Positions 11,833-13,579 of a stretch of 32,000 nucleotides of DNA are shown in pieces. The notes under the pieces were generated by a model that saw only the letters and a program-made list of their open reading frames with translations, had not been told where the DNA came from and made no database searches. A program made the position numbers and the translations under genes. The stretch's first letter is position 1. Each line of letters starts with the position of its first letter. The stretch covers positions 1 through 32,000 of the forward strand of contig JAUWKS010000002.1 in NCBI GenBank assembly GCA_030614005.1, in the 5' to 3' direction. The DNA comes from Candidatus Heimdallarchaeota archaeon. GTDB taxonomy: Archaea > Asgardarchaeota > Heimdallarchaeia > JABLTI01.

Positions 11833-12906
11833 ATGTCTCTAAGACCCACGTATCGAGCAATTGGCATCGATTTAGGAACATCAACAATAAAACTCTCTTG
11901 TGCGGGTAATCTCAAGAAAATTCCTTCTATAGTTGGCACTCCATTACAAGGTTGGAGTGGATTTAGTGGAGATAAATCTTTAGAGAAGAATTTAGTGATT
12001 TCTGATGGAGAAAAGAGTCTTTATGTTGGCGAGCTTGCTAGATTGCAGAGCGAAATAAAACGAGCAATAGCTAGTGAAGGGAAAGTAAAGAGTATTGAAG
12101 ATGCCATCTTAGCAATCAAAGCGGTTCTTGCTTTAATTACTAAAAAAGATCATGATCAAATTATTATGGCAACTGGTGTACCTGTAGCTTCTTCGAAAAA
12201 AGAAATGACTAAACTTGCTAAAGGGTTAAAAGGAAATCTAGATCTTAGAATTGAAAATGAAGCCACCGGAGAAAAATTCCATCGAAAATTAACGATAAAA
12301 AATTGCATAGTTATGCCGGAACCCTTTGGTACATATTATCATACTCTTAAAACTGAAGGGGAATCTCGAGCAGTAGATGCTATTGTTATCGACGTTGGGC
12401 ATGGTTCAACAGATATCTTAACCTTGTATGAAGGAAGAATTATGCGTCAAGCTTCGGGCAGCTTAGAAGAAGCGACTGATACTCTCACACATAGAATTGC
12501 TCAGGAATTACAAAATCAAACAGGTAAAATTATACGTCCTTTTGATCTTATGACTGCTCTTTCTCAACAAAAAGATATTCTCACTATTCAAGGAGAAAAA
12601 TGGGATATTGCAAGTATGAAAGAGTATCACATAGAAATAATTGCCGATGTCATTTTAGATGAAGTAAATCGATTAATAGGTACCTTACCACCTGATGCAA
12701 TTATAGAAAAAGTCATCCTTTGCGGAGGAGGAATGCATATATTTGGCGGGCGATTAAGAGCAGGATTTGAACAAGCTGGTTTAGCTGATCATCCAGAAAT
12801 GCTTGCAATGCCTGAGGATCCCGTAATGTCTAATGCTAGGGGTTTTGAAATGTTCGCAAGAACTTTTGTGAATGGTTTAGGAGTTGATGGATACAATGAG
12901 CTCTGA
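11833..12906 (+). CDS. ParM/StbA-family actin-like ATPase
   Basis: Phosphate-1 IGIDLGTSTIK, YVGELA, MATGVP, VMPEPFG, phosphate-2 VIDVGHGSTD, adenosine ILCGGG, connect-2 DPVMSNARGF. Confidence 0.92.
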   Translation: MSLRPTYRAIGIDLGTSTIKLSCAGNLKKIPSIVGTPLQGWSGFSGDKSLEKNLVISDGEKSLYVGELARLQSEIKRAIASEGKVKSIEDAILAIKAVLALITKKDHDQIIMATGVPVASSKKEMTKLAKGLKGNLDLRIENEATGEKFHRKLTIKNCIVMPEPFGTYYHTLKTEGESRAVDAIVIDVGHGSTDILTLYEGRIMRQASGSLEEATDTLTHRIAQELQNQTGKIIRPFDLMTALSQQKDILTIQGEKWDIASMKEYHIEIIADVILDEVNRLIGTLPPDAIIEKVILCGGGMHIFGGRLRAGFEQAGLADHPEMLAMPEDPVMSNARGFEMFARTFVNGLGVDGYNEL

Positions 12907-13579
12907 GAAACCAAAATCCAAAACTTCTAAAGAAAAAAAGGAGAGCTCCACAAAAAAGAGTTCTTCAAGTAAAAAATCGAAGAAAACGATTCCACAGAAG
13001 TGGAAAGAAGAATCGAAAGAAGTCAGTCGAGATTTGGATAAAGGTAAAAGAAGAACTTTAATCTCAACAATAAAACGCAGCATTTCTTTGAAAGGTGACA
13101 AACCGAAAACACCTAGTTCTGAAGCAATGAATATTGTAGTTACTCTCAGTCCAGCTAAACATATGGACATCATTGAATATATTAATGAAAATGTTGCCAC
13201 TAGAGGAAGAGCTGAATGGGTTCGTGATTCTATTAGACTGAAAATGAGAATCGAACGTGGAGTTTATGGCTTAAATTCTGGTGGTTCTGAAGATGCTAAA
13301 GATTCAGAATCATTACAAGCTGTTTTTGGTCAATTTGCTGATATGATGACCAAAGTGATGACAGATTTAAGGGATGGTCAGCAAACCGCAAGTCCAATCT
13401 CTAGCACTCCAACAGCAGCTACAACAAGACCAAGACCAGCTCCAAGCGTGGCTAGACCAACTCGCGGTGGTCCTCCTCAATTGAAGAAAGTAGAAATAGA
13501 TGAAAAAACCCAGAAAGAAATGATGCCTGATAGGCCATCCTTAGACGATGCAATTGGGGCAATCATTATAGTAGAATAA
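12884..13579 (+). CDS. Ribbon-helix-helix protein with basic disordered N-tail and short C-terminal peptide (ParR-like layout)
   Basis: NIVVTLSPAKHMDIIEYINENVATRGRAEWVRDSIRLKM fits the RHH beta-alpha-alpha pattern; K/S-rich N-terminus, P/T-rich linker, C-terminal PSLDDAIGAIIIVE. Overlaps the actin gene stop (starts possible at 12884, 12887 or 12896; AGGAG at 12879). Confidence 0.7.
   Translation: MMDTMSSEKPKSKTSKEKKESSTKKSSSSKKSKKTIPQKWKEESKEVSRDLDKGKRRTLISTIKRSISLKGDKPKTPSSEAMNIVVTLSPAKHMDIIEYINENVATRGRAEWVRDSIRLKMRIERGVYGLNSGGSEDAKDSESLQAVFGQFADMMTKVMTDLRDGQQTASPISSTPTAATTRPRPAPSVARPTRGGPPQLKKVEIDEKTQKEMMPDRPSLDDAIGAIIIVE

Follow-up and report, generated by a model that had tools for sequence, protein, structure and literature searches.

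The window examined here is a 32,000-nucleotide stretch (positions 1 to 32,000 of contig JAUWKS010000002.1) from a Candidatus Heimdallarchaeota archaeon. Within it, two overlapping open reading frames (ORFs), designated ORF1 and ORF2, encode a pair of proteins that is ParMR-like in architecture and that is a new archaeal chromosomal variant of this type of pair. ORF1 encodes an actin-like protein (ALP) of the ParM/Alp/Ta0583 group. ORF2 encodes a smaller protein that has a probable ribbon-helix-helix (RHH) core and, at its C-terminus, a tail that probably docks on the ALP, as in ParR. We hold with moderate confidence that the pair operates as a domesticated ParM/ParR-type cassette in which a filament engages a tail-docked adaptor.

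An initial annotation, made from the sequence alone, had described both ORFs, and both are real as described. The features of the pair are listed below, with coordinates in nucleotides (nt) of the window and ORF2 residues in amino acids (aa).

11833-12906, + strand: ORF1, an actin-fold ATPase of the ALP/ParM/Ta0583 group, 357 aa (Pfam, AlphaFold2 (AF2) model, Foldseek).
12879-12898, + strand: translational-coupling junction, in which an AGGAG at 12879-12883 lies within the 3' end of ORF1 and precedes the candidate starts of ORF2.
12884-13579, + strand: ORF2, 231 aa.
12884-13039, + strand: ORF2 aa 1-52, disordered Lys/Ser-rich tail (16 K/R and 17 S/T).
13040-13093, + strand: ORF2 aa 53-70, conserved basic helix KGKRR(S/T)LIS(A/T)(L/I)KRSIS (a block in the orthologues; helix at aa 53-67 in the AF2 model, with low confidence scores).
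13121-13264, + strand: ORF2 aa 80-127, probable RHH core consisting of strand NIVVTL, helix 1, a G-R-A-E turn and helix 2 (AF2, hhalign).
13304-13372, + strand: ORF2 aa 141-163, conserved helix LQxVFGQFAxxMTKVM (orthologue alignment, model).
13373-13465, + strand: ORF2 aa 164-194 (approximately), disordered Pro/Thr/Arg-rich linker with predicted local distance difference test (pLDDT) scores below 50; its sequence and length vary among orthologues.
13466-13576, + strand: ORF2 aa 195-231, bipartite C-terminal tail GGPPQLKKVE ... KPDRPSLDDAIGAIIIVE, the proposed ALP-docking peptide (invariant columns).

Three candidate starts are present for ORF2, a TTG at 12884 and ATG codons at 12887 and 12896, and these give overlaps with ORF1 of 23, 20 and 11 nt, respectively; the start that is conserved among orthologues is the MSS at ATG 12896. 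ORF2 is translationally coupled to ORF1; the overlap and the internal AGGAG can be read directly in the sequence. The two genes are adjacent in all 12 genomes of this archaeon's family (family f1; f2 to f5 denote other Asgard families), and across the 11 other f1 genomes identity ranges from 76 to 97% for ORF1 and from 54 to 87% for ORF2. As each of these 11 genomes keeps the pair, always adjacent, it is not a chance ORF arrangement. The assignment to an Asgard archaeon, which had been proposed from the sequence, agrees with the Candidatus Heimdallarchaeota label of related contigs. The datasets listed as carrying the stretch are DNA metagenomes from marine sediment and cold seep, with no RNA dataset among them.

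Several comparisons place ORF1 among the actin-fold ATPases. It holds the strings VMPEPFGTYY and PEDPVMSNARGF, and the ParM/StbA motifs MPEPFG and DPVMSNARG that the initial annotation had pointed out are present. The Pfam model ALP_N (PF17989) matches ORF1 at 3.5e-14 (53.7 bits against a cut-off of 26.3) and the Ta0583-type model MreB-like_C (PF21522) matches at 8.8e-14 (52.6 bits against a cut-off of 27.8), while the Pfam Actin model scores barely above its cut-off and covers 67 residues only. The top NCBIfam match is the ParM equivalog PRK13917, at 67 bits and below its cut-off of 417. The best sequence matches in the PDB are Dh-cParM1, pCBH ParM and Ta0583; CorM, the actin-like protein of a cyanobacterial system considered below, matches by sequence with E = 0.01 and ranks seventh by fold. 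The AF2 model of ORF1 has a pLDDT of 85 and a predicted template modelling (pTM) score of 0.87, and its best Foldseek match is Ta0583 (E = 4.7e-18, TM-scores of 0.73 and 0.81), followed by pSK41 ParM, Dh-cParM1, pCBH ParM, CorM and Alp7A, with MamK, MreB, R1 ParM and actin ranked lower. The nucleotide-binding motifs are intact (phosphate-1 DLGTST..K, phosphate-2 DVGHGSTD and adenosine GGG), and residues D13, G15, T16, K20, D187, G189, G191, T193 and G298-G300 do not vary among 32 members of the family. Taken together, the Pfam and PDB matches, the fold ranking and the nucleotide motifs place ORF1 in the ParM/Alp/Ta0583 group and not with Lokiactin-type actins, in agreement with the earlier statement that it is not a eukaryote-like actin.

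The AF2 monomer model of ORF2 is poor overall (pLDDT 53.7), with helices at aa 90-103 and 109-125 that reach approximately 80. In an ungapped comparison with archaeal RHH_1 domains encoded in the same genomes, the core fits them in the order of alternating strand, P, helix 1, G-R-A-E turn and helix 2. An hhalign comparison of ORF2 with 14 archaeal RHH_1 domains gives a score of 15.45 (P = 0.0075), which 3 of 200 column shuffles equal. The named language-model neighbours of ORF2 are PF10784 Plasmid_stab_B (the ParR/StbB family), RHH_1, RHH_3 and NikA-like proteins, with similarities of 0.78 to 0.85 that all lie below 0.9 and are therefore treated as leads. From these sequence comparisons, the core of ORF2 is probably an RHH domain.

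The remainder of ORF2 differs in how widely it is conserved. The polybasic N-terminal tail, which the initial annotation had suggested could bind DNA non-specifically, is confined to a close clade and is lacking in three distant homologues (P0126-P0128). The segment at aa 53-70 was considered as an amphipathic helix, but its hydrophobic moment is not among the top windows. An exhaustive profile search with ORF2 against 1.84 billion representatives returned only eight true relatives, three of which are these distant homologues; at 31-32% identity, they keep the core, the MGQF helix and the C-terminal tail. Among the other families searched, the ORF2 query found no match. In all 12 f1 genomes ORF2 is single-copy and lies directly 3' of the C9-type ALP, the paralogue to which ORF1 belongs. 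Two of the distant homologues are on long contigs, where a single gene separates each of them from an ALP gene and the layout is convergent. The ORF2-ALP link therefore survives rearrangement. The 238-aa gene that lies between the ALP and the distant ORF2 homologue (L024:6631-7347 (-) and L025:6722-7435 (-)) encodes a C-terminal winged-helix-like segment with weak FtsK_gamma and HTH_11 matches.

The C-terminal end of ORF2 is PDRPSLDDAIGAIIIVE, and the initial annotation had taken this peptide, carried on a flexible linker, to be an element that docks on the ATPase. It had also suggested predicting the complex of the two. When the complex of ORF1 with ORF2 aa 186-231 was predicted, the interaction prediction scores from aligned errors (ipSAE) were 0.38, 0.39 and 0.60 (median 0.39), compared to 0.01 for the best control, with a partner pLDDT of at least 49 and a contact agreement of at least 56%; this outcome is graded as weak support. 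The tail scored 0.01 when an unrelated protein was substituted for the ALP. For calibration, the mark reached here is passed by 58 of 80 solved and by 2 of 110 mismatched pairs, and passes at or below 0.60 are mostly wrong where there are no prior grounds for an interaction. Here the comparative evidence on the tail supplies such prior grounds.

This comparative evidence consists of the recurrence of the same tail on other proteins. The shared motif is RPxLDD followed by hydrophobic residues, and its bipartite form is PPxLKKVE ... RPxLDD-hydrophobic. It ends proteins of 395-434 aa that are encoded directly downstream of ALP genes (L078, L079, G226 and G264) and that are otherwise unrelated to ORF2; in G226 and G264, the tail-bearing gene adjoins the 3' end of the ALP gene. 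Two such proteins from Loki/Hel-type contigs, of 430 and 395 aa, end in KRPKLDDMLDSIIVSE and QRPKLDDMIDSIVVSE. In the genome under study (3.6 Mb in 126 contigs), a strict form of the tail pattern has two matches in a six-frame translation, compared to a rough chance expectation of approximately 0.005, and both matches are C-termini: that of ORF2 and that of a 237-aa protein encoded outside the window on contig C112 (L081:3466-4179 (-), equivalent to C112:39465-40178), which ends in DRPLLDDVLETIIVSTEDD. Besides the bipartite tail, this second protein has a coiled coil and, at its N-terminus, an RHH-like domain (P = 1.9e-4 in an hhalign comparison with RHH_1); it is kept in 12 of 12 genomes of the family, and its gene adjoins neither an ALP gene nor the 372-aa, putatively BRO1-like gene that follows ORF2. 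Family f2 has coiled-coil proteins of approximately 303-314 aa that end in RPDLEDVLDDILISG; those at L095, L097, L098, L100 and L101 end in PPDRPDLEDVLDDILISG and are not encoded next to the ALP gene of their genomes. Further variants of the tail exist. An ALP is found in 17 of 19 genomes that have the tail (E at or below 0.001), compared to 53 of 300 genomes overall, a co-occurrence that serves as supporting evidence only because the tail-bearing genomes are in part close relatives and because ALP-bearing genomes were the source of the tail profile. The presence of the tail on unrelated ALP-adjacent proteins, its co-occurrence with the ALP and the complex score together indicate that the tail is probably an ALP-docking peptide, as had been proposed.

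Other observations on the tail and its bearers can be recorded here. The string QLKKVE (ORF2 aa 199-204, 13478-13495) resembles the LKKV motif found in WH2 domains of eukaryotes, but here the motif precedes the hydrophobic helix and does not follow it. At two loci (L078:3832-7376 and L079:3802-7308), two ALP genes stand head to head, and the second is followed by the gene for a 395-430-aa protein that has no Pfam family and carries the shared tail at its end. A BLAST comparison of the 430-aa Loki-type ALP-adjacent protein with the 372-aa protein of the window was not significant (E = 0.18).

The distribution of the ALP family differs from that of a plasmid gene. Among 169 homologues found in the database, the closest 120 share an identity of at least 50% with ORF1; the named ones among these 120 carry mostly Asgard labels, and their NCBI name is often 'ParM/StbA family protein'. 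An identity of at least 50% extends across the Heimdall- and Loki/Hel-labelled members found, and the identity of plasmid ParMs to the family is just 22-26%. Three ALP paralogues, at 53-55% identity, are encoded in this genome on contigs C9, C34 and C54, and all three are kept across f1, except that the third copy was not recovered from the genome that is least complete. In family f2 there is mostly one ALP copy and sometimes two, families f3 and f4 have no ALP in the genomes searched, and the family as a whole is present in 53 of 300 sampled genomes of the phylum, clustered in few families. Given this high conservation and paralogy, the ALP family looks like a cellular cytoskeletal family, unlike a plasmid gene. 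The chromosomal placement proposed earlier is also borne out, and with it vertical inheritance: the locus is colinear over approximately 20 kb among members of the genus, and the family's second genus also retains the block of four genes (ALP, ORF2, 372-aa gene and small GTPase).

In a tree of the ALPs, the C9-type clade comprises 23 rows with a support of 100 and a long stem, and this clade and a second ORF2-linked clade both fall outside the other 107 ALPs (support 88), a topology that is indicative only, as the tree was made with FastTree, is rooted at its midpoint and has long branches. Residues I79, V85, F165 and L250 (ORF1 numbering) are common to both ORF2-linked clades, and the other 107 ALPs conserve different residues at these positions; of the three rows that make up the second ORF2-linked clade, one has F at position 85, and position 165 is Y in 99% of the other 107 ALPs. 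The C34 and C54 paralogues (L020:5366-6466 (-) and L021:4821-6125 (-)) have no ORF2-like neighbour. The C34-type ALP has a conserved convergent gene for a membrane protein and an Arf-like GTPase nearby, and the C54 type adjoins a gene for endonuclease V. The convergent genes of approximately 228 and 235 aa beside these two paralogues were considered as adaptors and rejected, as they encode this membrane protein and endonuclease V.

The following features flank the pair.

11284-11565, - strand: 93-aa gene with no Pfam family, divergent from ORF1 and in the same position in nearly all family loci that reach it.
11718-11737, + strand: conserved upstream element TAAAATGGCAATACTTTTTA, 20 nt, single copy (12 orthologous loci), within the 267-nt divergent intergenic region.
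13602-14720, + strand: 372-aa gene with a putative BRO1-like label, separated from ORF2 by 22 nt and probably part of its operon.
14762-15499, + strand: small GTPase gene, the fourth of the block, with a putative MglA-like label (Pfam Arf 5.5e-07, Ras 1.7e-05), 41 nt after the 372-aa gene.

The upstream element may be a promoter or an operator. As a dispersed centromere it was rejected, since it is not enriched over a reversed control in the genome (7 matches each with up to 3 mismatches). Upstream of the pair in the 12 orthologous loci, the best 9-mer family reaches 2-4 copies, compared to a shuffle mean of approximately 3.3. A palindrome, GAATATTC, at 11648-11682 was likewise set aside, as it is confined to the three closest genomes. 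The 372-aa gene is confined to f1, where it is found in 11 of 11 cases, always beside ORF2 and in exact co-occurrence with it. In family f2, a 27-29% identical GTPase is encoded within approximately 1 kb of the single ALP gene in three of four loci, directly upstream in one and one gene away in two; the hint is weak, as Asgard genomes commonly encode small GTPases. The initial annotation had described the neighbours as housekeeping genes, a loose description: they are conserved chromosomal genes, but many are of the Asgard signalling type.

The reading that we favour assigns the following roles to the pair. To judge from its family, fold and intact nucleotide motifs, ORF1 would be an ATP-dependent, filament-forming actin-like protein. 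ORF2 would be its adaptor, which would dimerise and bind DNA through its RHH core, a role for which the comparisons above offer modest support. The tail of ORF2, which terminates a disordered stretch of some 50 residues, would dock on the ALP, as the complex prediction and the comparative evidence suggest, and ORF2 would thereby tie a cargo, most likely DNA, to the filament. Since the same tail is found on other Asgard proteins, ALP filaments would serve several adaptors. The lack of centromere repeats and the fixed operon with the putative BRO1-like and GTPase genes suggest a positioning or cytoskeletal role, similar to that of CorMR, over plasmid partition.

A number of observations weigh against this reading. 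The score of the ORF1-tail complex is in the weak range and the contacts were not returned. Profile searches of ORF2 against Pfam, NCBIfam and the PDB found no family or chain, a fold search returned only generic helical hairpins and is uninformative on the RHH domain, and the RHH strand is not formed in the monomer model. RHH strands form in dimers only. The RHH core described in the initial annotation has modest support, from the hhalign fit and the sub-0.9 leads. Searches for tandem repeats, iterons and palindromes gave nothing beyond chance level, with no iterated centromere-like or parC repeats upstream or nearby in the 12 orthologous loci, and the sole conserved upstream element is unique in the genome. 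Two of the 19 tail-bearing genomes showed no ALP, to which the relatedness of these genomes and the origin of the tail profile are to be added. Finally, given its exact co-occurrence with ORF2, the 372-aa gene product could be the partner of the tail instead, within f1; the lineages outside f1 argue for the ALP.

The alternatives that we weighed differ in what they assign to the filament and to the tail. The filament could belong to a membrane cytoskeleton resembling CorMR of Anabaena sp. PCC 7120, a chromosomal ParMR system repurposed as a cortical cytoskeleton that has lost its role in DNA segregation (bioRxiv 10.1101/2025.06.27.661541; PDB 9rmi). The basic helix at aa 53-70 and the polybasic tail of ORF2 would then bind membrane and not DNA, the RHH domain would serve dimerisation or autoregulation, and the filaments would act with the BRO1-like and MglA-like proteins in cell shape, polarity or membrane remodelling. 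CorR has the same layout, in which an N-terminal membrane helix is followed by an RHH domain, a long helix and a disordered region, and a peptide at the C-terminus binds ParM (bioRxiv 10.1101/2025.06.27.661541). CorM is among the top fold matches of ORF1, the locus lacks centromere repeats, the operon includes the putative BRO1-like and GTPase genes, and the basic N-terminal parts of ORF2 are clade-specific additions, all of which are consistent with such a cytoskeleton. We nevertheless consider it unlikely, as the hydrophobic moment of aa 53-70 is unremarkable and similarity to the CorR sequence was not detected. Its filament-plus-adaptor core is the same as that of the favoured reading, and only the cargo differs.

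The initial annotation had connected the pair with type II partition. A genuine type II system could partition the chromosome or an unassembled extrachromosomal element from a centromere located elsewhere, and the ParM-like and ParR-like architecture, the two RHH-type adaptors with the same tail and the existence of bacterial chromosomal ParMR cassettes (PMC12270681) are compatible with this. The function found no support at this locus, which has no parC-like repeats and no plasmid and which shows an apparent operon with the putative BRO1-like and MglA-like genes. The parC-like array is absent, the upstream element is not repeated in the genome, and the ALP has three paralogues and more than 50% identity across Asgard families, unlike fast-evolving plasmid ParMs (22-26%); genuine partition is therefore improbable. 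We likewise regard it as improbable that ORF2 is merely an RHH autoregulator of the operon whose tail makes no contact with the ALP and instead binds another partner, such as the BRO1-like protein, or serves as a degradation or localisation signal. The single, operator-like conserved upstream element would suit an autoregulator, as would the weak complex score and the exact co-occurrence of ORF2 with the BRO1-like-labelled gene in f1. However, the tail also ends unrelated ALP-adjacent proteins in lineages that have no BRO1-like neighbour, the second tail-bearing protein of this genome is not encoded beside a BRO1-like gene, and the tail scores 0.01 with an unrelated protein in place of the ALP.

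If the tail binds the filament, then a list of all proteins that end in it would show the cargo of the filament, and the candidates would include DNA-binding proteins, coiled-coil proteins and possibly a link to the ESCRT-type BRO1 module. More tentatively, and with the balance of our judgement somewhat against it, several Asgard lineages (Heimdall-, Loki- and Hel-labelled) may possess a second, ParM-derived actin-like cytoskeleton besides Lokiactin. Unrelated adaptors would share a docking peptide of RPxLDD plus hydrophobic residues, by the same logic as WH2 domains and ParR tails, and in f1 this cytoskeleton might couple DNA-binding RHH proteins, the putative BRO1-fold protein and an MglA-type GTPase.

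A search of the available literature found no description of a ParMR-like pair, a ParM-type family or an adaptor of this kind in Asgard archaea, and the pair can be compared with three known systems. Ta0583 of Thermoplasma acidophilum (PDB 2fsj) is the best structural match of ORF1, shares the PF21522 C-terminal domain and is likewise archaeal and chromosomal. Unlike Ta0583, to which ORF1 is approximately 22% identical, the family described here is Asgard-specific and has three paralogues. We know of no adaptor partner that has been described for Ta0583. The ParMRC systems (ParM/ParR/parC of R1, and those of pSK41 and pCBH) and the chromosomal cParMR systems, which have been described in bacteria and include Dh-cParM1 (PMC12270681), have an actin-fold ATPase, and they provide the nearest solved relatives of ORF1 by sequence and fold. 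They also share with our pair a small downstream adaptor with an RHH domain (probable in ORF2) and a C-terminal peptide. Unlike ParMRC, the pair has no parC iteron array and no plasmid, its ALP is 22-26% identical to plasmid ParMs and misses the PRK13917 cut-off, and, unlike in ParR, the probable RHH domain of ORF2 is internal, behind approximately 80 residues.

Judged by its layout, the closest analogue is CorMR. In both cases the pair is chromosomal and vertically inherited, centromere repeats have no role, and the ribosome-binding site of the adaptor lies within the ATPase gene, that of corR being inside the 3' end of corM (bioRxiv 10.1101/2025.06.27.661541). The order of elements in the adaptor is also the same: an extra N-terminal element, an RHH domain (probable here), a long helix, a disordered linker and a short C-terminal peptide. 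The pair described here differs from CorMR in being archaeal and in having an adaptor with no detectable homology to CorR when the ORF2 profile is compared with the PDB. Likewise, the N-terminus of ORF2 consists of a 50-aa polybasic tail and a basic helix, whereas that of CorR is a 10-aa amphipathic helix. The partners are putative BRO1-like and small-GTPase genes in place of MinC, and the C-terminal tail of ORF2 is common to several other proteins.

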